This document shows, piece by piece, positions 3,901 through 18,903 of a stretch of DNA of 64,000 nt. The notes under the pieces are model-generated. The model was not told the origin of the DNA and ran no database searches. It saw nothing but the letters and a program-made list of their open reading frames with translations. Source of the stretch: an uncultured Ectothiorhodospiraceae bacterium (GTDB lineage: Bacteria; Pseudomonadota; Gammaproteobacteria; S012-40); assembly GCA_945787715.1 (NCBI GenBank), contig CALZJE010000003.1:6088-70087 (forward strand). The letters are read 5' to 3'. The stretch's first letter is position 1. Each line of letters begins with the position of its first letter. Both the position numbers and the translations under genes were made by a program.

Positions 3901-4374
3901 CTATAGTGTAGTCGGTTTAACGCTTTTTAATTTTCCCAGCAATTCTTTTAGCATCTTTTTTTCAATCTCTAAATCTTCCATTCTTTTGGATATCTCAACA
4001 ATACTAAGTTGCTGCTTTTGCTCATAATTTGATGTAGTGTCTTGATACCAATCAAGACTAAAATCATTGATGAGTTTCTCCTGGACAGCAGGATAATTTT
4101 TAATTTCTTGCGACCAAAATTCTACATCAGTGTTAATAATATCTAACACTGAAACTTTCAATAAATCCCAGTTACCAGCAGGATCTGAAAACTCATTGGC
4201 TAAGTTAGAAAATTCCCGTTGCCTTATCACTTGCGGCGTTGTTTTATCTTTTATTACTTCCACATATCTCTTAATTTCGAAAATCGAGTTATTAAGATTA
4301 ATAATTGCCTGATCAACAGCATAGGTATTTAATGATAGGCCAGCTAACAAAACTGTAAAAATTATTTTGTTCAT
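3901..4374 (-). CDS. Hypothetical secreted protein (signal peptide MNKIIFTVLLAGLSLNTYA)
   Basis: The ORF track extends to 4464, but that version would overlap the fbp stop and terminator. The internal Met at 4374 gives a clean Sec signal. No family recognised. Confidence 0.5.
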   Translation of the reverse strand: MNKIIFTVLLAGLSLNTYAVDQAIINLNNSIFEIKRYVEVIKDKTTPQVIRQREFSNLANEFSDPAGNWDLLKVSVLDIINTDVEFWSQEIKNYPAVQEKLINDFSLDWYQDTTSNYEQKQQLSIVEISKRMEDLEIEKKMLKELLGKLKSVKPTTL

Positions 4375-4389
4375 ATATATTTCCAACAT

Positions 4390-4422
4390 AAAAAAACCCG
4401 GATAAAGTATATCCGGGTTTTT
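4390..4422 (-). terminator. Rho-independent terminator downstream of fbp
   Basis: Stem CCCGGATA / TATCCGGG flanked by A- and T-runs. Confidence 0.6.
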
Positions 4423-4441
4423 AGACTTAAGCTGTTTAAGA

Positions 4442-5446
4442 TTACTCTTTATGGTATGAAACAACTCTTTCTACTTCGTTCTTAGACCCAAGTATTACAG
4501 GCACTCGTTGGTGGATAGCATTCGGCTCGATATCCATAATTCTTTCTCTACCTGTAGAACTCACTCCACCAGCTTGCTCTACGATAAAAGACATTGGGTT
4601 AGCTTCATACATCAAACGCAGTTTACCCGCCTTGGCTGGATCTTTTGTATCGAATGGATACATGAATATCCCACCACGAGTTAAAATTCTGTAAACTTCA
4701 CCAACCATAGATGCAACCCAACGCATGTTGAAGTTCTTGTCACGCGCTCCTGTAACACCATCAATACACTCTTGAACATAACGTTGAACTGGCGCTTCCC
4801 AAAAACGTTGGTTAGACATGTTAACCGCAAACTCAGCTGTGTCTTCAGGGATTGTGATATCCTTGTGAGTAAGTTTGAACTCACCCGTTCCTGGATCAAG
4901 CGTGAAACCTTGCACACCGTTTCCAGTCGTCAAAATCATTAATGTAGATGGTCCGTATAGAGTGAAACCAGCACAAACTTGTTTGTTACCATCTAGCAAG
5001 TAGTCATTTAACTTTGGATCTGTAACGCCTTCCGGGCATTTAACAATTGAAAATATAGAGCCAACAGTAATGTTCACATCGATATTTGATGATCCATCTA
5101 GTGGATCAAAATACATTAGGTATGGGCCTCGAGGATACTCAGCAGGAATGCTATAAACATCTTCTTCTTCTTCCGATGCCATTCCAGCTAGGTTTCCACT
5201 TCCTTCTGTACAACGGATAAACATCTCGTTAGACATAATGTCTAATTTCTTTTGAGTTTCACCTTGTACGTTTTCACTTTCCGCTGAACCTAGAACGCCA
5301 TAAAGCGCTCCATGGTTTATTGCATCGTGTATTTCTTTACATGCTGAAGCAACATCATCAAGTAAATCAATAAGATGTGCATCAACTGCCTCACCAGCGC
5401 GTTGCGCGTTTACAAGGTGTCTTTTTAGCGTAATGGCGTTTTCCAT
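4442..5446 (-). CDS. fbp: Fructose-1,6-bisphosphatase class 1
   Basis: 334 aa with typical FBPase I sequence ([24 protein letters not shown]). Confidence 0.9.
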
Positions 5447-5535
5447 TGTATTTCCTTAATTTTTAACAAAAGTCTTTTTTCTGCGGCGAATGATAGCAAA
5501 CTAATGCTCTAATTTCATTGTGTATGAATTGATAA

Positions 5536-6246
5536 TTAGAGAGTTGTTATTTTAGCCATCTCTTCTTCAATTTGGAATTCAACCAAATCATTTAGCTCGG
5601 TGGTAGTTTTTCCTATTGGATCAATCGCAGGAAGGATGGAAATGGTAATCGTACCAGGCTTCTTTAACATACTATGTTTTGGCCAAAACTCCCCAGCATT
5701 ATGCGCTACTGGTACAACTAATTGTCCAGTACTTACCGCGAGCCTCGCACCACCAGCTTTATACTTACCTCTTTTACCGGGAGTAATACGTGTTCCTTCT
5801 GGAAATAACACAACCCATCTTCCGTTTTTTAATCGGTTATCACCTTGTTCTATAATCTGCTCCATCGCCTTTTTCTTTGCTGATCTATCGATGGCAATAG
5901 GTTCTAACATTGCTAGTCCCCAGCCGAAAAAAGGAACACGTAATAACGCTTTTTTTAATACCCAGATCTGTTGTGGAAAAATAACTTGTAAAGCAAAAGT
6001 TTCCCATGTCGATTGATGTTTGCATAAGATGATGGATGCTTTAGCTGGAATATTTTCTTTTCCCTTTACTTTAAAGTCTAAATTACACACCTTTTTTAAA
6101 CACCAGATATTAAACCGTGCCCATTGTCGAATAAATGCATATCTCTTTTCGTAGGGAAGTGGAAAGGTCAATAACGAAGGAATTGAATACAATATAGCCG
6201 TTGTTACCATTATAAAAAAATATATATACGATTTTAATTTTTGCAT
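5536..6246 (-). CDS. plsC: 1-acyl-sn-glycerol-3-phosphate acyltransferase
   Basis: 236 aa with the acyltransferase motifs KHQSTWE (HX4D-like) and VLFPEGTR, and an N-terminal TM segment. Confidence 0.8.
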   Translation of the reverse strand: MQKLKSYIYFFIMVTTAILYSIPSLLTFPLPYEKRYAFIRQWARFNIWCLKKVCNLDFKVKGKENIPAKASIILCKHQSTWETFALQVIFPQQIWVLKKALLRVPFFGWGLAMLEPIAIDRSAKKKAMEQIIEQGDNRLKNGRWVVLFPEGTRITPGKRGKYKAGGARLAVSTGQLVVPVAHNAGEFWPKHSMLKKPGTITISILPAIDPIGKTTTELNDLVEFQIEEEMAKITTL

Positions 6247-6355
6247 TCTAAGTTCTAAATTGAAATTGAAGGGAGCAGCTATTATGCAAAGATAATAACT
6301 AAATTCAACCTTGTTGATTATTCACGAGAATAGTATTTTCCAATACAAAATGTAT

Positions 6356-6907
6356 TTAGCCGACACTACAGACATATTCTACCGCGTCCAATAGATTATT
6401 CTTGATTGGGATATTATGTGCTTTGAGCTCTGTTGCCTTTTCCGCGAGTGTCTTCTTGCCTTTCCCTGTCAGAACTAATATTGGTTTCACTGAGACTTTA
6501 ATTCCTGCTTCCAAATCTCTGTATGAATCACCAATGGTGTAAACACCACACAGTGATGTTTGATAATATTCTGCCATTTTAGTAAACAGACCAGAATTTG
6601 GTTTTCTACAACTACAATTATCATCTGGTCCATGGGGACAATAAATTATTGCGCTAATTTTCCCGCCTTGTTCGGCGCATAGCTGCCTGAGTTTATTATG
6701 CATTTCATTGAGTGTCTGATGACTATAATAACCGCGAGATATGCCTGATTGATTCGTCGCTACGATGATTTTAAAACCGTGTGATGTTAATCTTGCAATA
6801 GCTTCAATAGAACCTTCTTCAGGCTGCCACTCGTCTACTGTTTTTATGTAGTTATCTGAATCTAAATTTATTACGCCATCCCTATCTAATACGATTAACT
6901 TTTCCAA
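6356..6907 (-). CDS. gmhB: D-glycero-beta-D-manno-heptose-1,7-bisphosphate 7-phosphatase
   Basis: HAD motif LDRDGVIN and the zinc-binding CPHGPDDNCSCRKP typical of GmhB. Confidence 0.8.
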   Translation of the reverse strand: MEKLIVLDRDGVINLDSDNYIKTVDEWQPEEGSIEAIARLTSHGFKIIVATNQSGISRGYYSHQTLNEMHNKLRQLCAEQGGKISAIIYCPHGPDDNCSCRKPNSGLFTKMAEYYQTSLCGVYTIGDSYRDLEAGIKVSVKPILVLTGKGKKTLAEKATELKAHNIPIKNNLLDAVEYVCSVG

Positions 6908-8035
6908 CGTTTCTTTTTCCTAGTCTCGTCACTAATAAAATAATAAATAAATACAGGGACCGTTCACCAAATTTCAGCGAACTTTTTTCAGTTACGCTTC
7001 TAATGTCATTTTTCGTTGAATCTTTGAGTGTTGTGAGATACATCCCTGAGAGATTGTTCCAAATATGCTTTATTACATATATTTTTCCAAATTCATCCAG
7101 AGATATAGATGTTGGATGAATGGGAGGAAATCGATTATCAGTGCCGCCTTCATCTGAAAGAAATATTTTACGCAACCCACTACTAGTTTCCTGAGTTGTA
7201 TCTGACGCATTTAATACAGCAATGTAGCCGTTCTCTATCTCTGAAGTGGTTTCTTCATTCACGATATAGCTTAAGCTAACAAGTAATTCATTCTTTTCTT
7301 GGTGATATAAAATATCGCTAGGTGCAGAATCATTTGGAAATTGATGATTTCCAATTTTAACGAGTGCTGCACTTTCTGGAGTTTCATAATTATCCACTTC
7401 TAATAAAACTAACTCAGAGGCAGCCTTGCCCCGATTTACCACAAAGAGTTTGTTTTCATCAGCTAAATAAACACCCGTTGCAGTCTCTTTCCCCAAACCC
7501 AGACTAATGCTTGCGACTTCAATATTTGTTGGAGATTCTAAACTGACGAGTGAAATACCATCAACTCCATTATCATTTGTACCTATGACAAAAAGATATT
7601 GTTCATCTTCGGAGAGTACAAGACTGGTGCCACAAGGACGCTAACACCTCTATCATGAGTAACAAATAATTTGCTTTCATCATTTGTAAAAACCATACCT
7701 CTCGCAAAACTACCTGGAATTTCTGGTGAGCCAATTAGTGAATTATTTGAGGTATCGATGATATTCAGGTAGGATTTTTCATCCCCATCCTCTTCCAGTT
7801 CTGTGGTAACAAAAACGGTATCGCCAGTTTTGTTGATTAACACATCTCTTGGATTACCAAACAATTCAATCGATTCAACATAGACACTATAACTTGCATT
7901 GACTACATGTAACTGACCATGTTTGTTATCATCACCGACATGGTCTGGTACATAGGCAAAAACGTCTGCTTTTGTATAAGGGGTTAAAATGATCAAGCCG
8001 ATAAATAATAAAAAGATTTGTGAGTGTTTTGTCAT
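6882..8035 (-). pseudogene. Beta-propeller (YVTN/lactonase-like repeat) exported protein, disrupted by a frameshift between 7586 and 7640
   Basis: ORFs 7583..8035 (with signal peptide) and 6882..7496 carry the same repeated blade motifs (KLFVTHDRG, QYLFVIGTNDNG, KLFVVNRG). The downstream frame is open upstream as far as 7641 and overlaps the end of the upstream ORF, which implies a single +/-1 shift. Confidence 0.55.
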
Positions 8036-8150
8036 AAAATTACACTAATGATTTAATTTGGGAGATATTATTTTTATCTCGGCTTCTGAGACGTAAATAT
8101 TATCTTTTTTAAAAGCGGTATATACGAATTTATAAAATAGAATTCGTCAG

Positions 8151-8594
8151 TTATCGATGAATCACATATTTACCAGAAAAACTTACGGCAATTTGGTTTT
8201 CATTTTTAATTTCGACATCCAATAATATGCGTGATCTCCCTCTTTTTTGAAAAGTTGAGATAAATTTTTCGACCACTTCCTTAGATGGCATTTTGCACTT
8301 ACCGATTATATCTGACTGTATTGCCATACTATAATCTATTTCACTATGCTGAATGACCACATGTGCTTTTATATTCTTTCTTAATAAAATCCCATATACC
8401 ATAGCCCAACCTGTGAGCACGGACACATTGTATAAACTACCACCAAATGCAGTCTTCTTATGATTTATATTGGGAGCTAATGGAGCTTTTACAACTATCT
8501 CATCATCGTTAAAACTCTCGATGCTTATCCCCATCTGGGTACTGAGTGGAATTTCAGTATGAATTATTTCTTCGATTATTTTATGTAATTGCAT
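8151..8594 (-). CDS. Hotdog-fold thioesterase-like protein (YiiD C-terminal domain-like)
   Basis: 147 aa that resembles the YiiD_C putative thioesterase family (…KTAFGGSLYNVSVLTGWAMVY…). Assignment is from memory of the family consensus. Confidence 0.4.
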   Translation of the reverse strand: MQLHKIIEEIIHTEIPLSTQMGISIESFNDDEIVVKAPLAPNINHKKTAFGGSLYNVSVLTGWAMVYGILLRKNIKAHVVIQHSEIDYSMAIQSDIIGKCKMPSKEVVEKFISTFQKRGRSRILLDVEIKNENQIAVSFSGKYVIHR

Positions 8595-8621
8595 TTTTAG
8601 GCTTATGTTTAACTATTGGAT

Positions 8622-8830
8622 ATTTCACGAAGCTCTTCTGTTTGCATTGGCTGTACAAAGTAATAACCTCGATAATAATGACAACTATATTCTTTTAAGA
8701 ATTCATGTTGTTCGAAAGTTTCAAAACCCTCAGCAACCACGCTCAAACCCAAGTGATGAGATATTTAAATGATAGTATCAACAATCACTTAACCTTTTCC
8801 AAAATCATCTGTCACAATTAAGACTTGAGG
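8622..8830 (-). pseudogene. Decayed remnant of an EAL-domain (c-di-GMP phosphodiesterase) gene
   Basis: A minus-strand frame gives ISHHLGLSVVAEGFETFEQHEFLKEYSCHYYRGYYFVQPMQTEELRE, which is the EAL C-terminal signature (VAEGVET…GYYF.KP). A different frame ~40 nt upstream gives IVTDDFGKG (the DDFGTGYSS motif). Stops and frameshifts separate the pieces, and the region has no ORF of 60 aa or longer. Confidence 0.55.
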
Positions 8831-9092
8831 ATATAGCTGAACGATGAACTAATTTTTCTTTAATGCATTTCGTAACTGATTTTGTAAACCCTGTTCAAGA
8901 AACCTTTAATGTCACAATATTTTGTGGAGATAAAAAAATTATTATATAAATGGTTAATGTTTTGACAGAATTACTTAAAAAAGATCCATACTCTTTTCAG
9001 TAGTTGCGTGACAATTCAGAAATACTTACAAAATACCGAAACTATTTCTGACCACATTAAATTCAATATTGAATAATAACTAATCAAATATT

Positions 9093-9860
9093 ATGCTAAA
9101 AACTCGAACAATTGTAATGATACTTTCTTTTTTTATGTCTGAAGCTAACGCCATAGTTAATATGGATAACCTCCATTTAAACTCAAATAAGGGAGGAATT
9201 TCAGGGAATTTCAATCTAAATTCATCTGGTGCATATGGGAATAGTGAACAATTTCTTATTGAAAGTGGAGCTGATTTCTATGCCAAACAATCTCAGTCAC
9301 TTCAATATTTAACACTAAACTATAGCTACGGTGAAAGTTTCTCCAAAGAAAATCAAAACAAATCCTATGTTCATCTTCGTCATATCAACAATGTAGACAG
9401 CAGCTCAACTTGGGAAATATTTACCCAAATTGAACAAAACAAATTTGCTCGATTAAACTTTAGAGGTTTAGTTGGTGGAGGCTATCGATGGAGTTTTTTA
9501 AAACATTCTAAACATAGCTCATCAATCATCGGTGTTGGTGCTTACTTTAGTGAGGAATATTTAACCCACTCTAGTGACATTAGTGAAGAAAGAAGCCTGC
9601 AATTGTTTCGAGGTAACTTCTATTGGATTTTTCGCACTAACATCTTAGAGAACATTACATTATTTAACACCACATACTATCAACCTGATCTCGAAAACCC
9701 TGATGATTACCGAGTTTTGGAAATAGCCGGGATCAAAATACCTTTATCAAAAAATTTGAGATTGAATTTATATGGGGAAGGAACTTTCGATAGCAAACCA
9801 CCAGCTAATGTAAAAAAAGGTGATTTGTCATATAAGACTGGAATTGAGTATAAGTTCTAA
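9093..9860 (+). CDS. Outer-membrane beta-barrel protein, DUF481-like
   Basis: Signal peptide, ~255 aa, alternating amphipathic beta-strand pattern and a C-terminal aromatic (…GIEYKF). Confidence 0.45.
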   Translation: MLKTRTIVMILSFFMSEANAIVNMDNLHLNSNKGGISGNFNLNSSGAYGNSEQFLIESGADFYAKQSQSLQYLTLNYSYGESFSKENQNKSYVHLRHINNVDSSSTWEIFTQIEQNKFARLNFRGLVGGGYRWSFLKHSKHSSSIIGVGAYFSEEYLTHSSDISEERSLQLFRGNFYWIFRTNILENITLFNTTYYQPDLENPDDYRVLEIAGIKIPLSKNLRLNLYGEGTFDSKPPANVKKGDLSYKTGIEYKF

Positions 9861-9909
9861 AACTTAGAGACATATGCTAATACAAATGTCTCATCTACAT
9901 AGTGAAATC

Positions 9910-11973
9910 CTAAGATAACTTGGATATATCAGCAATTCGAGAAAATTGTTGATAGAGTTTTGAAAGCATCGCCAAACGATTATTTCTCACAGCTTTGTTA
10001 TCCGTCATTACCATCACGTGATCAAAAAAATCATCTATTGATTCTTTAAGTTGAGACAACAACTTCAGCGCTTGATCATAATCTTGCTTTTCAACGAGTG
10101 AATTTACATCAGACTCTAGCTCAGTTAATCGAGAATAGAGAATATTTTCTTGTTCTCCTTCAAAAAGATCAACATTAACATCTGAAGGCAACTCTTCTTT
10201 ATTTTTACGCAATATATTACTAATTCTTTTATTCGCTGCGGCTAACGCTTCTGATTCTGGTGATTTTTCAAACAACGCTACCGAATTCATGCGCGCATCA
10301 AAGTTTGCAGGTATTGTTGGCCGTGCTGCTAAAACTGCTTCGAATACTTGTGGTCGATACCCTTGCTCGTGATAGTAACCTTTCAAGCGATCCATCATAA
10401 ACTCATAAACTACGCCAACAACTTCATTATTCTTCAACGAATATTGTTTCGCTACGATTGTTAGAAGCTTATCAAGATCAAGTAGCAATGACTTTTCAAT
10501 CATTATTCGCAATATTCCCAATGTCGCCCGTCTTAATGCAAATGGATCTTTATCACCAGTGGGGATTAGGCCAATAGAAAAAATTCCAACAAGCGTATCT
10601 AATTTATCCGCCAGAGAGACAATTTGCCCAACTTTTGATGGTGGCAAACTATCACCAGCAAAGCGAGGCATGTAGTGCTCTAAAATAGCTTCCGCAACCT
10701 CTGCATCTTCTTTATCGTGAAGTGCGTAATAGCGGCCCATTATTCCCTGTAATTCCGGGAATTCACCAACCATTTCTGTCATCAAATCACACTTTGAAAG
10801 TTCTGCAGCACGCACAACGTGTTTTTTATCGACGCCAAGCTGCTTAGCAATTGCTTCAGCAAGCCCCATCACCCGAGTCGTTTTGTCGTATAGCGTTCCT
10901 AATTTGTTCTGGAAAACAACTGTCTTTAATTTTTGTAATTCAGTATTGAGCGGTGTTTTTCTATCCGTATTCCAGAAAAAATCTGCATCACTTAACCGAG
11001 GATGAATAACTCGTTCATTACCCTGTTTAACGGTATCAGGATTTTTACTGTCAATATTTGAAACAGTGATAAAACACGGCAGCAATTCATCATCTTTAAT
11101 CACATGAAAATATTTTTGATGACTTTTCATCGCTGAAACCAAAGCTTCCGAAGGAATTTCTAAAAATTTCTCATCAAAATTTCCTAAAATTGCTTTTGGC
11201 CATTCCACAAGCCCTGTGACTTCATTGAGTAATGCTTCATCAATAACCGCTAAACCATTTACTTTGAGAGCAGCTTGTTCTACTTGCGCTTTAATGGCTG
11301 CTTTTCGTTTTTCAAAATTGGCTAGCACGTGACCATTAAGTTCCAACAACGATTCATAATCTGATGGATTCGGTAATTCGATCGGTTCAGGATAGTGGAA
11401 TCGATGTCCTTTGGTTGTTCTTCCCGCTTTTAATCCGAGTACTGAACAATCGACCACGTCGCTACCGAGCAACATCACTAACCAATGAACTGGTCTTACG
11501 AATTGAGTCTGGCTGTCTCCCCAACGCATGCGCTTTGGTATAGGCAATTTAGCCAGAGCTTCTTCCACCATTGACGGAAGAAGTTCTCTTGTCTCTTCAC
11601 CTTTCACAGTGCTTCTGAAAACTAGCCAGGCCCCTTTATCGGTATCTGCTTTTTCCAATTCGTCTACTGAAACGCCACATGAGCGAGCAAATCCTACTGC
11701 AGCAGGTGTAGGGCAACCGTCCTCTTTAAACGCAGCACTCACTGCAGGGCCTCTTCGTTCAACTTCTTTGTTTTCTTGTTTTAACAAAATAGAAGATATT
11801 TTCACCGCCAATCGCCTTGGGGATGCAAAATTTTCTACTTCACCAAAAGTAACACCAGCCTTTTCCAGACTTTCAACGAGATTGTCAGAAAATGTTTTTG
11901 ATAACTTCTCTAATGCTTTTGGTGGAAGTTCTTCGGTCCCCAATTCAACAAGAAAATCTGCTGTATTTGACAT
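9910..11973 (-). CDS. glyS: Glycine--tRNA ligase beta subunit
   Basis: 687 aa, typical GlyS. Its start overlaps the glyQ stop (ATGA). Confidence 0.9.
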   Translation of the reverse strand: MSNTADFLVELGTEELPPKALEKLSKTFSDNLVESLEKAGVTFGEVENFASPRRLAVKISSILLKQENKEVERRGPAVSAAFKEDGCPTPAAVGFARSCGVSVDELEKADTDKGAWLVFRSTVKGEETRELLPSMVEEALAKLPIPKRMRWGDSQTQFVRPVHWLVMLLGSDVVDCSVLGLKAGRTTKGHRFHYPEPIELPNPSDYESLLELNGHVLANFEKRKAAIKAQVEQAALKVNGLAVIDEALLNEVTGLVEWPKAILGNFDEKFLEIPSEALVSAMKSHQKYFHVIKDDELLPCFITVSNIDSKNPDTVKQGNERVIHPRLSDADFFWNTDRKTPLNTELQKLKTVVFQNKLGTLYDKTTRVMGLAEAIAKQLGVDKKHVVRAAELSKCDLMTEMVGEFPELQGIMGRYYALHDKEDAEVAEAILEHYMPRFAGDSLPPSKVGQIVSLADKLDTLVGIFSIGLIPTGDKDPFALRRATLGILRIMIEKSLLLDLDKLLTIVAKQYSLKNNEVVGVVYEFMMDRLKGYYHEQGYRPQVFEAVLAARPTIPANFDARMNSVALFEKSPESEALAAANKRISNILRKNKEELPSDVNVDLFEGEQENILYSRLTELESDVNSLVEKQDYDQALKLLSQLKESIDDFFDHVMVMTDNKAVRNNRLAMLSKLYQQFSRIADISKLS

Positions 11974-12902
11974 TATTTAGCCTCCCCAATGTTTTTATTG
12001 AGCATAGGGAAACCCAAATTTTCTCGACAATCGTAATAAGAGTGAGCAACTGCTTTAGACAAATTTCTTACACGACCAATAAATCTTGCACGTTCTGTCA
12101 CCGATATCGCGTGACGTGCATCTAGCAAATTAAAGGTGTGTGATGCCTTTAAAACCATTTCGTAGGCAGGTAACGGCAAATTCAATTCAATGAGTCGATT
12201 ACCTTCTTTTTCATAAAAATCAAATAGTGTAAATAACGTATCTACAGGGGCATGTTCAAAATTGTAGGTAGACATCTCAACTTCGTTTTGATGAAAAACA
12301 TCGCCATAAGTGACTTTACCTTGTGGACCATTTGCCCAGGTTAGATCATACACACTAGAGACCCCTTGTATGTACATTGCGAGTCTTTCTAGACCATAGG
12401 TAATTTCACCGGTTACCGGTTTGCAATCTAAGCCGCCCACTTGTTGAAAATAGGTAAATTGCGTGACTTCCATGCCATTCAACCAAACTTCCCAACCTAA
12501 CCCCCAGGCACCAAGAGTTGGAGATTCCCAGTCATCTTCTACAAATCGAATGTCATGTTCTAGGGTGTCAAAACCAAGCATTTTCAATGAATCTAGATAC
12601 AATTCTTGAATATTATCGGGAGATGGCTTCAATATTACCTGAAATTGGTAGTAATGTTGTAAGCGATTTGGGTTTTCCCCATAACGCCCATCAGTTGGTC
12701 TTCGCGACGGCTGAACATATGCTGCATTCCATGGTTCAGGGCCAATTGAACGTAAAAAAGTCGCAGGATGAAACGTACCTGCGCCTACCTCTATGTCAAG
12801 TGGCTGAATAATCACACAGCCTTGATCTGCCCAATAGTGCTGTAGAGCAAGAATTAGCCCCTGAAAGGTTGAAATATCAACATTAGCATCCGAAATTTGC
12901 AT
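11973..12902 (-). CDS. glyQ: Glycine--tRNA ligase alpha subunit
   Basis: 309 aa, highly conserved GlyQ sequence (…[25 protein letters not shown]…). Confidence 0.9.
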
Positions 12903-13128
12903 ATTGTTAGTGTGTTTCGCGAAAAAAGCGTAAGTATACCGATGCCACCCTGCAAAAACTATCTTTGCTGCCTATATCTCACAGGATATTTCATGAAAGT
13001 TATAACAGAGAACTAAAAAGCAGCATTTGCTTAAATCTCCTTTTAATCAAAATGGATAATCAGATCGTAAAGTATGTGTTTATTTGAGCCGATTAACTAA
13101 ACAGACCATTTAAAGAGAATATATCAAT

Positions 13129-13701
13129 ATGTCTCAAATCATTATCGATTCAAGTAGTACAGAACAATGGCAAAAGTTGGTTCATGAAGCAGAATCTTTA
13201 TGTGAATTTCAATTAGACGAAGAGTTAGAAAGCTATTTGGTATTTTTATTAATGCGCTTTTTAGGTCGTTCGGACTTTACTTCTCGAATAATGGCGATGG
13301 ATTATCTTCATAGCCTAATCCAAACCGGTCAATTACAACAGGAAAGCTTAAGAGATGTGGGGGATCACTGTTTACTGTTTTCTGGTCTATTCCCAAAAAT
13401 AGCAGAGAGACGAAGTGTGAAAATTAGCTACTACGTTGGGATTGGCAAAAGTGCGTATAGCCACTTGGCTGATACCTGCAAAGAAAGTTTAGGAACTTTT
13501 TACCGCCAGTTAGCTGATGCTTTTGTGCAACTAATGGATATTCTTCAAGTAATTGGCAATATGCGAAACAACGCAGAAGTTCTTTCGCCATTAGAAGCAC
13601 TAGAATTATGGGGAGATACTCAAAGTAAACAAGCACTTAGATCCATCCGAAGCTTTTCAAAGGGAACACCAATAATTCATTCGCAATCCACAAAGCATTA
13701 A
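13129..13701 (+). CDS. Hypothetical protein
   Basis: 190-aa ORF with a plausible start. No recognisable motifs. Transcribed divergently from glyQ. Confidence 0.4.
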   Translation: MSQIIIDSSSTEQWQKLVHEAESLCEFQLDEELESYLVFLLMRFLGRSDFTSRIMAMDYLHSLIQTGQLQQESLRDVGDHCLLFSGLFPKIAERRSVKISYYVGIGKSAYSHLADTCKESLGTFYRQLADAFVQLMDILQVIGNMRNNAEVLSPLEALELWGDTQSKQALRSIRSFSKGTPIIHSQSTKH

Positions 13702-14857
13702 ATAATATTTTCGGCATAAATAATGTATTTATTACAGTAAGCAGCTTTAGCTATCTTTAGTTTCGTGATTTGATAATTAACCCAGCCGAATTAAATTCGA
13801 AGTCTTTCTTTTCTTTTCCCACAGTTATCCACTTCCTCTAATAAATAATATATCTATATATAAAAACTTATTGTTATTATTGGTTCAATCATTTTTGTGG
13901 TTAAGTTTCGATTTAGTTATATTTTTCATCATCTTACTGAGAGTTTTTTGTATTAACAAATTGTATAAATATACTTAACTAAGCTGTGGGTAACTTGTTC
14001 ACAAAAAGCGTTATTTTCCGTTCCGATTTTCTATTAACAAGTTATCAACAGTCTATTCCAATTTTATACACGTGTTTTTAAGAATAAATGGCGATCTACG
14101 AGTATTTACCGTTACTAGGTTAGTTAAATACCAGTATTTTTTATGGATATGATTATTACTCGATTCAAACGCAGTGCTTTATTGCAGAAATGCTTTTAAA
14201 ATGACTGATAATTATTAACCACTCTTTTCACATTTACTCTCCAAAATAAAACATTTCTATTATTAGGGGAATAAGAGTTGAATTTAGTGATAATATTTCT
14301 TATAAGAATTTTTTGGCTTTTTACAGATCTTCAAAAACTTTCTACCGGCATAAAATTTGAATCTAATTTATTAAACATATTAACCCCTTTATGTTTTTGG
14401 CTGCTGGTTTGAGACTTCCCCTTAAAACTCAGATCAGCAGCTTTCCTTTATTATTTTTCTTTAGTTATTAACATCTCTATATATAAATATATATCTATAT
14501 ATAAAAATTTGTTGTTGTTATTGAGTCTAAAATATTTGTGGGTAACTTCTATTATCTTATTATTATTCAATATGTTATTTATCAGTATAAGGCTCAACAA
14601 GTTGTATGGATATACTCATCTAAGCTGTGGATAACTTGTTTACAAATATGGTCTTTTTTACATAGAAAATTTTATCAACAGCTTATACACAAGCTACACA
14701 AGTGTTATACACGCGTTCTTTAAGTCAACTTTTGATATTTTTTAACCATTTCCCTCCACTTTTTCAGCTACAATATGCAGTATTTTTTGTAATCCTCCAC
14801 CTGTTGTTATTCTAGGATCGGCTCCTTGGAGTATCTGGAGGTTATGTTTTAATTTTT
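13702..14857. other. Non-coding AT-rich region with clustered DnaA-box-like 9-mers and an AT-rich repeated element; candidate oriC or DnaA-binding locus
   Basis: Boxes matching TTATNCACA or its complement: TTATCCACt 13825-13833, TGTGGtTAA 13896-13904, TGTGGgTAA 13985-13993, TTATCaACA 14042-14050, TTATACACg 14064-14072, TGTGGgTAA 14537-14545, TGTGGATAA 14626-14634, TTATCaACA 14672-14680, TTATACACA 14683-14691, TTATACACg 14705-14713. They sit in two ~230-bp homologous modules, each headed by ATATCTATATATAAAAA. Confidence 0.55.
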
Positions 14858-15916
14858 ATGAGAGTTTTTATGAGTAAACAGCGAAAAGCCGTTGCATTAA
14901 TTTCTGGTGGATTGGATTCTTTATTAGCTGCAAAGGTATTGCTTGAGCAGGGTGTTCACGTAGAAGGAATAAATTTTTACACAGGTTTTTGTGTTGAAGG
15001 ACATACCCATGCAATACGTAAAAAAGGCAAAGATAAAGTAAAACGAAATAATGCATTGTGGTCTGCAGAACAATTAGGCATTAAATTGCATATTGTCGAT
15101 GTCATAGAAGAATACAAAGATGTTTTGATTAATCCCAAACATGGTTATGGTGCAAATATGAACCCCTGTCTGGATTGCAAAGGCTTCATGGTTCGTAAAG
15201 CAATGGAGTGGATCAAAGAAAACAATTTTGATTTTATTGTTACCGGTGAGGTTATTGGCCAGCGGCCTATGTCTCAGCGTAAAGATACTATGCCAATCAT
15301 TGCAAGAGAATCCGGAGCAAATGATCTGCTTTTAAGACCACTATGCGCCAAATATTTACCAGAAACCAAGCCGGAAAGAGAAGGTTGGGTGGATCGTGAA
15401 AAGCTCTATGATTTCAGCGGCCGTTCACGTAAACCACAAATGGCTCTAGCGGAAAAATTTGGTTTTTCCGAATATGCCCAACCCGCCGGTGGATGCTGTT
15501 TTCTAACAGATAAATCTTACTCTGATCGACTTGTCGATTTATGGAAAGCGCGTGATGATGATCGTAATTATGAAATGGATGACATCATGTTGTTGAAAGT
15601 GGGGCGGCATATACGTCCTAAACCACACTTCAAAATGATTATTGGTCGTGAAGATGGTGAAAACAAATTTATGTCTGGTTACAAAAAACAGTTTGCTCAT
15701 ATGTATGCGACTAGTTGTGTTGGTCCCCTGGTGTTAATTGATGGTCCAGCAACAGAAGAAGATTTGGCATTGGCTGCACAAATTACGGCCAGATTTAGCA
15801 AAGGAAGAACTGAGCCATCAGTAACTGTAGAAGTGACAGATGCTCATGGAGTTTCTAAACTCTTAAATGTTGCACCTCTCAAAGAACACGAAATACTTGC
15901 AGAGTGGCAAGTGTGA
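14858..15916 (+). CDS. PP-loop ATP pyrophosphatase of the MnmA/TrmU tRNA 2-thiouridylase family (divergent)
   Basis: SGGLDS PP-loop. NPCLDCKGFM and GGCCFLTDK align with the MnmA NPxxxCN and GICF catalytic-cysteine regions, and IVTGEVIGQR aligns with MnmA IATGHYxRR. The start could be 14870. Confidence 0.5.
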   Translation: MRVFMSKQRKAVALISGGLDSLLAAKVLLEQGVHVEGINFYTGFCVEGHTHAIRKKGKDKVKRNNALWSAEQLGIKLHIVDVIEEYKDVLINPKHGYGANMNPCLDCKGFMVRKAMEWIKENNFDFIVTGEVIGQRPMSQRKDTMPIIARESGANDLLLRPLCAKYLPETKPEREGWVDREKLYDFSGRSRKPQMALAEKFGFSEYAQPAGGCCFLTDKSYSDRLVDLWKARDDDRNYEMDDIMLLKVGRHIRPKPHFKMIIGREDGENKFMSGYKKQFAHMYATSCVGPLVLIDGPATEEDLALAAQITARFSKGRTEPSVTVEVTDAHGVSKLLNVAPLKEHEILAEWQV

Positions 15917-17496: not shown

Positions 17497-18903
17497 ATGC
17501 CGTCTAACGTTTTAAAGATGATGAAAGAATTTGAAGTGAAGTTTGTTGATTTTCGCTTCTCAGATACTCGCGGTAAACAAATGCATTTAACAGTTCCAAG
17601 TACAGCTGTTGATGAAGATTCATTAAAAGAAGGGATGATGTTTGATGGTTCTTCAATCAATGGTTGGAAGGGCATCAATGAGTCAGACATGATTTTGATG
17701 CCAGATCCAAGTACTGCGACAATGGATCCTTTCACTGAAGATTCAACGTTAAACATCGTATGTGATGTTGTTGAGCCAGCCACTATGTCTGGTTATGAGC
17801 GTGATCCTCGTTCTGTTGCTAAACGTGCAGAAGAATTTTTGAAATCTACAGGTATTGCAGATACCGCTTTCTTCGGTCCTGAAAATGAGTTTTTTGTGCT
17901 TGATGACGTTCGTTGGGGTGCTGATATGTCAGGCTCTTTTTGTAAAATAGATTCAGAAGAAGCAGAGTGGAACTCAGAAAAAGTTTATGCCGACGGTAAC
18001 ATGGGCCATCGTCCAGGTACTAAAGGCGGTTACTTCCCAGTACCACCAGTCGATTCTTTGTATGACTTGCGCTGTGCTATGACTACTGCGCTTCAGGAAA
18101 TGGGGCAAGAAGTTGAAGTGCATCATCATGAAGTAGCAACAGCTGGTCAATGTGAGATTGGTGTTAAATTCAACACATTAGTTTCAAAAGCTGACGAAGT
18201 TCAAGATCTAAAATATGTAATTCATAATGTATCGCATGTATATGGCAAGACAGCGACTTTTATGCCTAAGCCGATGGTTGGCGATAATGGTAATGGTATG
18301 CATGTTCACATGTCTCTTGCAAAAAATGGCGAGAATCTTTTTTCTGGTGATGAGTACGGTGGTCTATCTGAAACTGCACTTTTCTACATTGGTGGAATTA
18401 TTAAACATGCGCGTGCAATCAATGCTTTCGCAAATGCTTCGACAAATAGCTACAAACGTTTGGTCCCAGGATTTGAAGCACCAGTTATGCTAGCTTACTC
18501 TGCACGTAATCGTTCTGCTTCTATTCGTATTCCTTATGTCACAAACCCTAAAGGGCGTCGTATCGAAGTACGATTTCCCGATTCAACAGCAAACCCCTAT
18601 TTAGCGTTTGCTTGTATGTTGATGGCTGGTCTTGATGGAATTAAGAACAAAATCCATCCTGGTGATGCAATGGATAAAGATCTATACGATCTTCCACCAG
18701 AAGAAGAGAAAGAGATCCCACAAGTATGTTTTTCTTTCGATCAAGCATTAGAAGCACTAGATAAAGATCGTGAATTTTTAACTGCTGGTGGTGTATTTAC
18801 TGACGACATGATCGATGCTTATATTGATTTGAAAATGGAAGAAGTAACACGTTTACGCATGACAACTCACCCAGTTGAGTTTGATATGTACTATAGCTGT
18901 TAA
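17497..18903 (+). CDS. glnA: Glutamine synthetase type I
   Basis: 468 aa with conserved GS-I motifs, including the adenylylation-site region NLYDLPPEE. Confidence 0.9.

Follow-up and report, generated by a model that had tools for sequence, protein, structure and literature searches.

Bacterial chromosomes are taught as having one replication origin at a fixed, conserved place, and the movement of an origin, as in the Escherichia coli lineage, is to our knowledge known only from its end states. The translocated oriC of the E. coli type lies at mnmG-mioC, and engineered two-origin strains of E. coli reportedly tolerate the second origin copy. In bipartite origins (incAB/incC of Bacillus subtilis and oriC1/oriC2 of Helicobacter pylori), clusters of DnaA boxes flank dnaA and only one unwinding element is present. 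The separation of oriC from dnaA in E. coli has been described (PMC8287927). An unwinding element, DnaA-trios, and a reverse R1 box form the conserved core of bacterial origins (bioRxiv 10.1101/2025.08.05.668638; PMC8287927), and the trio rule of the basal unwinding system is (NAN)≥3 within ≤16 bp of the proximal box (PMC8287927). Pseudomonas aeruginosa has the dual origins oriC1 and oriC2, which are also predicted in most Halomonadaceae, and the Halomonadaceae pair was stated not to be a late duplication (bioRxiv 10.1101/2025.08.05.668638). In Mycobacterium bovis BCG Pasteur, the 29.7-kb tandem duplication DU1 gives rise to two oriC copies (PMC2448323). Here we describe a non-coding region (13702-14857, 1156 bp) between a gene for a 190-amino-acid (aa) protein and a ThiI-like gene in a 64,000-nucleotide stretch of DNA, hereafter the window, from an uncultured Ectothiorhodospiraceae bacterium (contig CALZJE010000003.1). 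The region carries two tandem modules built like origins, and is probably the chromosomal replication origin (oriC), relocated, inverted, and tandemly duplicated.

The modules resemble dnaA-dnaN origins (incC of B. subtilis, those of C. difficile and S. coelicolor, and the predicted origin of Thioalkalivibrio sulfidiphilus) in the order of boxes, reverse R1-type box, trio-like run, and AT-rich element. Unlike these, they lie ~14.7 kb from the end of dnaA, are inverted, are present in two copies, and stand downstream of a gene reading towards the unwinding element. As in the E. coli type, a rearrangement has separated the putative origin from dnaA; however, the displacement is short, at ~15 kb, a decayed remnant still marks the donor site, and intermediates survive in relatives. 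The two-origin state is natural, unlike that of the engineered E. coli strains. With bipartite origins the locus shares two DnaA-box clusters at one place, but the clusters here are duplicates with an unwinding element apiece and without an intervening gene. It is like the Pseudomonas and Halomonadaceae pairs in having more than one complete DnaA-type origin close together, with one copy repeatedly downgraded or lost. The Pseudomonas-type sites nevertheless differ: the mnmG-mnmE and rpmH-dnaA spacers of the window genome measure only 73 bp and 287 bp (the latter with two box-like sites) instead of being large and origin-bearing, and their least stable 40-mers reach only z = 2.0-2.1. In contrast to the Halomonadaceae pair, the modules are clearly recent paralogues, with 67% identity, and stand in direct tandem at a distance of 643 bp. 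DU1 likewise is a tandem duplication that leaves two origin copies per chromosome, but it comprises many genes in near-identical copies in a laboratory-passaged strain, whereas the unit found here is ~0.64 kb long, gene-free, old (33% diverged), and retained in two species. Therefore, dnaA-dnaN origins, the E. coli-type translocation of oriC, the dual origins of P. aeruginosa, and the two-oriC duplication of BCG Pasteur are already known; distinct here are gene-free, direct-repeat origin modules 643 bp apart that have been kept across a species split, with donor and intermediates in relatives. No description of such a tandem origin was found in the literature searched, coverage of which was incomplete.

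The guanine-plus-cytosine (G+C) content of the spacer 13702-14857 is 27.9%. It contains no open reading frame (ORF) above 61 aa, the longest being of low complexity, and a Rfam scan of 12800-15200 gave no match at E ≤ 1. We found 12 DnaA-box-like 9-mers with at most one mismatch to TTATNCACA in the spacer, two of them perfect (starts at 13825, 13896, 13985, 13995, 14042, 14064, 14465, 14537, 14626, 14672, 14683, and 14705). Dinucleotide-preserving shuffles of the region (n = 2000) gave 2.1 ± 1.45 such sites (maximum, 7), and 12 was not reached in any of them. The spacer is also the densest 1156-bp stretch of the window for boxes (window mean, 1.65), and a cluster of boxes (TTWTNCACA) above background, as is characteristic of oriC, is thus present. 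Because the modules are copies of each other, the independent box signal is ~6 per roughly 270 bp. Matches to the IHF consensus overlap the forward box of the modules and are indistinguishable from a weak tandem DnaA box. The first-pass annotation, made from the sequence alone, had counted at least ten boxes within one mismatch, which our count bears out, and had put the region ~10 kb from dnaN-recF-gyrB; the distance to the end of gyrB (3852) is 9.85 kb. It had also called GATC sparse. GATC is indeed not enriched, but its density (4 sites, 3.5/kb) is that of the background (3.9/kb in the window).

A blastn self-match delimited two plus-strand repeat units, 13721-14142 and 14364-14788, that form a direct repeat with a period of ~643 bp and 66.5% identity over 433 columns. 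Within them, the module cores 13815-14090 (module A) and 14455-14730 (module B) have the same element order, are 67% identical over 275 columns, and are ~365 bp apart. The two modules of the first-pass annotation are therefore real, although the repeat is larger than the ~230 bp described; its inter-module distance of ~400 bp was close, and its guess of an internal duplication agrees with the identities of units and cores. Between the units lies a unique, fast-evolving spacer of 221 bp (14143-14363).

Relatives were fetched via the 190-aa protein and RecF. Downstream of the 190-aa gene, L081/L082 (190-aa identity, 92%; spacer, 984 bp) have two modules like the window, L083 (86%; 693 bp) and L096 (63%; 414 bp) have one, and L086 (68%; 417 bp) and L087 (69%; 138 bp) have none. 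The copies in the window have diverged and the same layout occurs in the independent JGI and ENA assemblies of one relative (L081 and L082); thus, the tandem arrangement is not an assembly artefact. Repeat unit 1 is orthologous to module A of L081 (76% identity), and unit 2 takes the position that the single module has in L083. In L086, the 417-bp spacer was considered as a module remnant, being similar by eye, but gave nhmmer E = 0.86 and is not claimed as one.

Column-by-column alignment of five module copies (A and B of the window, A and B of L081, and the single module of L083) showed the order forward box, AT-rich block, T-rich run, reverse R1-like box, inverted box pair, and terminal box. 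The forward box is TTATCCACT in module A (13825-13833, plus strand), left of the unwinding element, and TTATTAACA in module B (14465-14473, plus strand), each with one mismatch; its position is kept in all modules at this site in the window clade and in the distant Chromatiales metagenome-assembled genome (MAG) L066, but not in L096. The AT-rich block contains ATATCTATATATAAAAA (13850-13866 in A and 14491-14507 in B). It is followed by a periodic, DnaA-trio-like T-rich run with four overlapping TT[A/G]TT motifs, which is CTTATTGTTATTATTGG in A (13867-13883, plus strand) and TTTGTTGTTGTTATTGA in B (14508-14524, plus strand). The reverse R1-like box lies ~13 bp past the run and is TGTGGTTAA in A (13896-13904, minus strand) and TGTGGGTAA in B (14537-14545, minus strand). 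About 80 bp further on, a reverse strong box adjoins a weak box (CTGTGGATAACTTGTTTACAA), the mirror image of this pair (TATCAACAAGTTATCCACAG) follows after ~26 bp, and a TTATACAC(G) box ends the module. In module A, the left arm of the inverted pair (inverted repeat I4) consists of the reverse box TGTGGGTAA and the overlapping weak box TTGTTCACA (13985-14003), and the right arm and the terminal box are TTATCAACA (14042) and TTATACACG (14064) (14042-14072, plus strand). In module B, the left arm (inverted repeats I8 and I13) contains the perfect reverse box TGTGGATAA (14626-14634, minus strand), and TTATCAACA (14672), the perfect box TTATACACA (14683), and TTATACACG (14705) follow at 14672-14713 (plus strand). 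Immediately upstream of module B is a terminator-like 15-bp hairpin followed by a T-rich tract (14399-14442, plus strand; RNA fold dG -22.9 kcal/mol, z = -4.9), which was missed by a simple terminator scan. Equivalent hairpins with a different stem sequence occur in L081 and, upstream of the single module, in L083, and the differences are consistent with compensatory change; module A has no such hairpin.

No distinct 40-mer sites of the window are less stable than the candidate unwinding elements of the two modules: 14465-14504 in module B (dG -35.7 kcal/mol) and 13839-13878 in module A (-36.0 kcal/mol), at z ~4.2 relative to the window mean of -51.7 ± 3.8 kcal/mol. The module A site is the third least stable overlapping 40-mer and the second least stable distinct site. 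Each module thus has an AT-rich element flanking its box array, as in an oriC and as the first-pass annotation had proposed. A reverse R1-type box (TGTGNAWAA) stands near each element (13896 and 14537), ~30 bp after the AT-rich core and with one mismatch.

We analysed the strand asymmetry on a merged stretch of 73.6 kb, in which position 9645 of L092 (MAG GCA_945787115.1, contig CALZHK010000001.1) corresponds to window position 1. The cumulative G-C minimum is at window position 14801, and all positions within 15 counts of it lie in 14459-14909; a GC-skew minimum, which the first-pass annotation had named as a check, is therefore found inside the region when run locally on these 73.6 kb. The skew at third codon positions (GC3 skew, top-strand oriented, which removes most of the gene-strand effect) was pooled by segment. 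In the window genome, it was -0.105 left of dnaA, -0.29 in dnaA, -0.175 in dnaN-glyQ (12 genes, p = 4e-10), and +0.088 to the right of the modules. The corresponding values were -0.100, -0.124, -0.179, and +0.118 in L090+L081, which also has two modules; in L089/L083, with one module, dnaN-glyQ gave -0.18/-0.26 and the right side +0.075. All three genomes have a decayed old site between dnaA and dnaN, as described below. In L093+L087 (one genome), where only the old site is present, the values were -0.134, -0.099, +0.106, and +0.188, and the cumulative G-C minimum is at 8526, at the dnaA 3′ end and ~135 bp from the dnaA-dnaN spacer. L086, which has no module and whose old site is outside the view, gave +0.127 for the dnaN-glyQ orthologues and +0.164 to the right. 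The skew is lower in the window than in L093+L087 for nine of nine clearly orthologous dnaA-glyQ genes (two-sided sign test, p = 0.004). The plus-strand dnaA, dnaN, recF, and gyrB of the window genome carry lagging-strand-like skew. In this local test, the switch in compositional asymmetry expected of oriC is located at the spacer. Together with the box cluster and the unwinding elements, the cumulative minimum and the GC3 switch support the oriC interpretation that the first-pass annotation had put forward.

A nhmmer profile built from the five modules had opposite-strand matches in the dnaA-dnaN spacers of L093 (E = 3.4e-14) and L095 (E = 2.8e-6; L095 and L096 are from the same genome), and in the alignment the homology extended over the AT-rich block, the run, and the two box pairs. 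It gave no match in the dnaA-dnaN spacers of the window genome, L090, and L089. A broader profile also matched the dnaA-dnaN spacers of the distant relatives L070, L028, L052, L049, and L077. These matches agree with the prediction for Thioalkalivibrio sulfidiphilus, in which oriC is placed in the dnaA-dnaN spacer and the parB-gyrB gene order is the same (bioRxiv 10.1101/2025.08.05.668638). From these alignments, the module is homologous to the ancestral dnaA-dnaN origin, but relocated and inverted. The least stable 40-mers of the intact old sites in L093 and L095 are at -33.7 and -35.3 kcal/mol and those of all modules at ~-35.5 to -36, and the run is present at both intact sites; in the old-site spacers of the three module-bearing genomes, the least stable 40-mer is at -41.6 to -43.8 kcal/mol. 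An NTT × 5 run was found in five of five window-clade modules and its complement, AAN × 5, at both intact dnaA-dnaN sites, but not at the decayed old sites; L066 was below the threshold, and L096 was outside that test. At the corresponding position, L093 (TATTATTATTATTAG, spacer 13) and L066 conform to the (NAN)≥3 rule; module A of L081 does so only if a relaxed box with two mismatches is allowed. As judged from these comparisons, the old dnaA-dnaN site has decayed in the window clade, with loss of the unwinding element and the run. The old spacer of the window genome (L092 8665-8881, ~0.8-1.0 kb to the left of window position 1) contains a perfect box among its four box-like sites and a TATAAT-like element before dnaN, and the decayed origin may survive as a DnaA-regulated dnaN promoter.

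In L095+L096 (JGI Ga0316207_10000050), both sites are intact (L095 8651-8875 and L096 10628-10879) and ~21 kb apart, which resembles the dual-origin state of the Pseudomonas type. This genome is a candidate natural dual-origin chromosome. Its GC3 skew was -0.082 left of dnaA, -0.006 in dnaA, -0.046 in dnaN-glyQ, and +0.016 to the right; the near-zero value of the interval (-0.046) is what a dual-origin or transitional state would produce. L066 (GlyS, 55% identical) has a module at 10594-10847 directly after the 190-aa gene, in a box-rich 575-bp spacer, in the same orientation and with a different gene downstream. The GC3 skew there changes from -0.28 to -0.09 at the module, without a change of sign; since the skew to the right stays slightly negative, the case of L066 is less clear. 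A GTDB genome scan with the 190-aa family added 80 outgroup loci with a best identity of 56% and no close relative. Among 70 distant GTDB loci with a measurable downstream spacer, 64 have one of ≤265 bp, and all but L066 hold 0-1 boxes.

Module identity between the window and L081 is 76% for A-A and 73% for B-B, whereas that for A-B is 67-70%. The duplication therefore predates the split of the window and L081 lineages. Between the window and L083, the modules are 63-64% identical. At four-fold degenerate sites, the flanking genes of the window share 69% identity with those of L081 and 43% with those of L083, and the inter-module spacer of the window is unalignable with that of L081. Because module identity has held against these backgrounds, both modules look constrained. 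A neighbour-joining tree of GlyS+GlyQ, a rough distance tree without support values, placed L096 as sister to the window/L081/L083 clade, followed by L086, L087, and L001, with L066 deeper in the same low-G+C group.

Based on these comparisons, the simplest reading of the history of the origin is as follows. The ancestral origin would have been in the dnaA-dnaN spacer, and an inverted copy would have been made ~15 kb away between the 190-aa gene and the thiI-like gene. A two-site stage, still present in L095+L096, would then have been followed in the window clade by loss of the unwinding element and the periodic run from the old site, and the new origin would have been duplicated in tandem with the 643-bp period in the ancestor of the window and L081. 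The old spacer can still be aligned over its whole length and L095+L096 has both copies, which favours a copy event with subsequent decay over excision; a cut-and-paste or double-inversion move is thus disfavoured. The L066 module implies either that the copy is much older and was repeatedly lost or that it arose twice.

From the anatomy of the modules and established models of DnaA-dependent origins, DnaA would occupy the strong inverted box pair and the weaker R1-like box proximal to the unwinding element and would then oligomerise on the adjacent run with its 3-nt period. The very unstable AT-rich element would open, the helicase would be loaded there, and forks would depart both ways. With forks in both directions, the plus-strand dnaA, dnaN, recF, and gyrB would be replicated head-on, and the minus-strand FBPase-glyQ genes would be co-directional. 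Module B is the likelier principal initiation site because it has two perfect boxes and the upstream terminator-like hairpin and matches the single L083 module; module A may also fire.

Several points weigh against placing the origin here. The head-on orientation of dnaA, dnaN, recF, and gyrB is unusual. The R1-like boxes are poorly conserved among the modules and carry one mismatch each, TGT triplets break the run in both window modules and depart from a strict (NAN)≥3 series, and none of the boxes in module A of the window is perfect. According to the Weigel criterion, the left-flanking gene is transcribed away from the unwinding element (bioRxiv 10.1101/2025.08.05.668638). This is the case at the ancestral site, where dnaN flanks the element, but the 190-aa gene (13129-13701, plus strand) reads towards the element of module A. 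In the old spacer of the window genome, three NAN triplets (TATCATTAT) still lie 12 bp from a perfect TGTGGATAA, and some residual origin activity could persist there. Finally, the skew was seen over 73.6 kb of a MAG, and a deeper minimum could lie elsewhere; skew also reflects long-term history and not current firing, and it cannot resolve modules 640 bp apart.

It is a tenable though uncertain reading that only one of the two modules, probably B, is the working origin and the other is a decaying duplicate or a DnaA-binding reservoir. The perfect boxes of the window are divided two to none between B and A, and B matches the single L083 module in position and has the same conserved hairpin before it, which A lacks. 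The lineage has already let one origin copy decay, and downgrading of one of two origins has repeatedly been inferred in Halomonadaceae (bioRxiv 10.1101/2025.08.05.668638). However, both modules keep an equally unstable AT-rich element and a periodic run, and two perfect boxes persist in module A of L081. Conservation between orthologues is as high for A as for B (76% vs 73%) while the intervening spacer has diverged beyond alignment, and the duplication is older than a species split across which four-fold sites are only 69% identical. We regard it as rather doubtful, though possible, that both tandem modules are active, or cooperate as an origin with two unwinding elements, and have been kept by selection since before that split.

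E. coli and B. subtilis have clusters of DnaA boxes outside oriC, and the dnaA-dnaN spacer of the window genome, besides its box-like sites, has a formal arrangement of a box plus three trios. The region could on these grounds be a datA/DARS-like titration or reactivation locus, the fallback named by the first-pass annotation, or a DnaA-regulated promoter of the thiI-like operon, with the true origin at dnaA-dnaN or elsewhere. This is improbable. A datA/DARS-like locus would be a cluster of boxes that lacks an unwinding element of its own and is remote from the skew switch, whereas each module has an extreme unwinding-prone element, a run, and full-length homology to an origin-type dnaA-dnaN spacer. 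The G-C and GC3 skews turn at the module locus and not at dnaA-dnaN, in module-less relatives they turn at dnaA-dnaN, and the old site of the window genome has no AT-rich element. Sigma-70-like sites were also rarer in the region than in shuffles in a promoter pattern scan. The limitation of the module to a few lineages and the variation of the spacer from 138 to 1156 bp among relatives could further suggest a remnant of an integrated plasmid or mobile-element origin, or an AT-rich spacer with chance box-like words. We give this very little credence, as shuffles never reached the observed box count, a comparison with 72,556 plasmids at the sensitivity of blastn gave no match, the flanks of the region lack rep, integrase, and transposase genes, and the module is homologous to the chromosomal dnaA-dnaN spacer of relatives.

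With the region read as a relocated and duplicated oriC, the decayed dnaA-dnaN spacer as donor, the inverted copy ~15 kb off as recipient, an intermediate with both sites, and a tandem duplication would all be recognisable in close uncultured relatives. The skew of ~12 orthologous genes flips sign between relatives as a model of origin movement predicts. The locus would thus allow origin turnover, and the redundancy of complete origins separated by 640 bp, to be tested on a concrete case. Origin predictors that search beside dnaA would choose the decayed dnaA-dnaN spacer in these genomes. If both modules are active, the lineage would preserve every stage of an origin being copied, moved, replaced, and re-duplicated, and would offer a natural system for how cells tolerate and resolve redundant origins.

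The host is an uncultured, marine-type gammaproteobacterium of ~38% G+C. Its relatives are MAGs that carry the labels Ectothiorhodospiraceae, Chromatiales, or Thiohalobacter. On the minus strand left of dnaA are parA, gidB, mnmG, mnmE, yidC, yidD, rnpA, and rpmH, followed on the plus strand by dnaA, dnaN, recF, and gyrB. FBPase, plsC, gmhB, and other genes, and then glyS and glyQ, occupy 3901-12902 on the minus strand; a plus-strand DUF481 gene (9093-9860) interrupts this run. The 190-aa gene precedes the spacer, and the ThiI-like PP-loop/NFACT-R_2 gene (14858-15916, plus strand) follows it, with genes for a CDF transporter, glnA, ntrB, and ntrC further to the right.

The 190-aa protein has 631 homologues in gammaproteobacterial MAGs, and its gene is usually divergent from glyQ. 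An origin module lies directly 3′ of it in the window clade, the sister genome L096, and the distant L066. The protein had no Pfam or NCBIfam match. Its AlphaFold2 model was confident and all-alpha (predicted local distance difference test score, pLDDT, 85; predicted template modelling score, pTM, 0.83), and a search of the model against PDB gave no fold match with E below 0.5.

An intact 436-aa gene of L081 corresponds to two ORFs in different frames in the window (6882-7496 and 7583-8035, within 6882-8198 on the minus strand), which reflects a frameshifted pseudogene or, alternatively, an error in the MAG consensus; the counterpart in the more distant L086 has a faint lactonase/beta-propeller match. 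Between glnA of the window (17497-18903) and that of L081 (14218-15624), identity is 100% at the protein level and 87% at four-fold sites, whereas the genes beside glnA are 90-95% identical in protein and 56-70% identical at four-fold sites; strong codon constraint or recent recombination is possible. L011, L030, and L032 are GTDB records titled ‘Halobacteria archaeon’ with gammaproteobacterial glyS-glyQ-190-aa synteny, and these contigs or MAGs are probably mis-binned or mislabelled.

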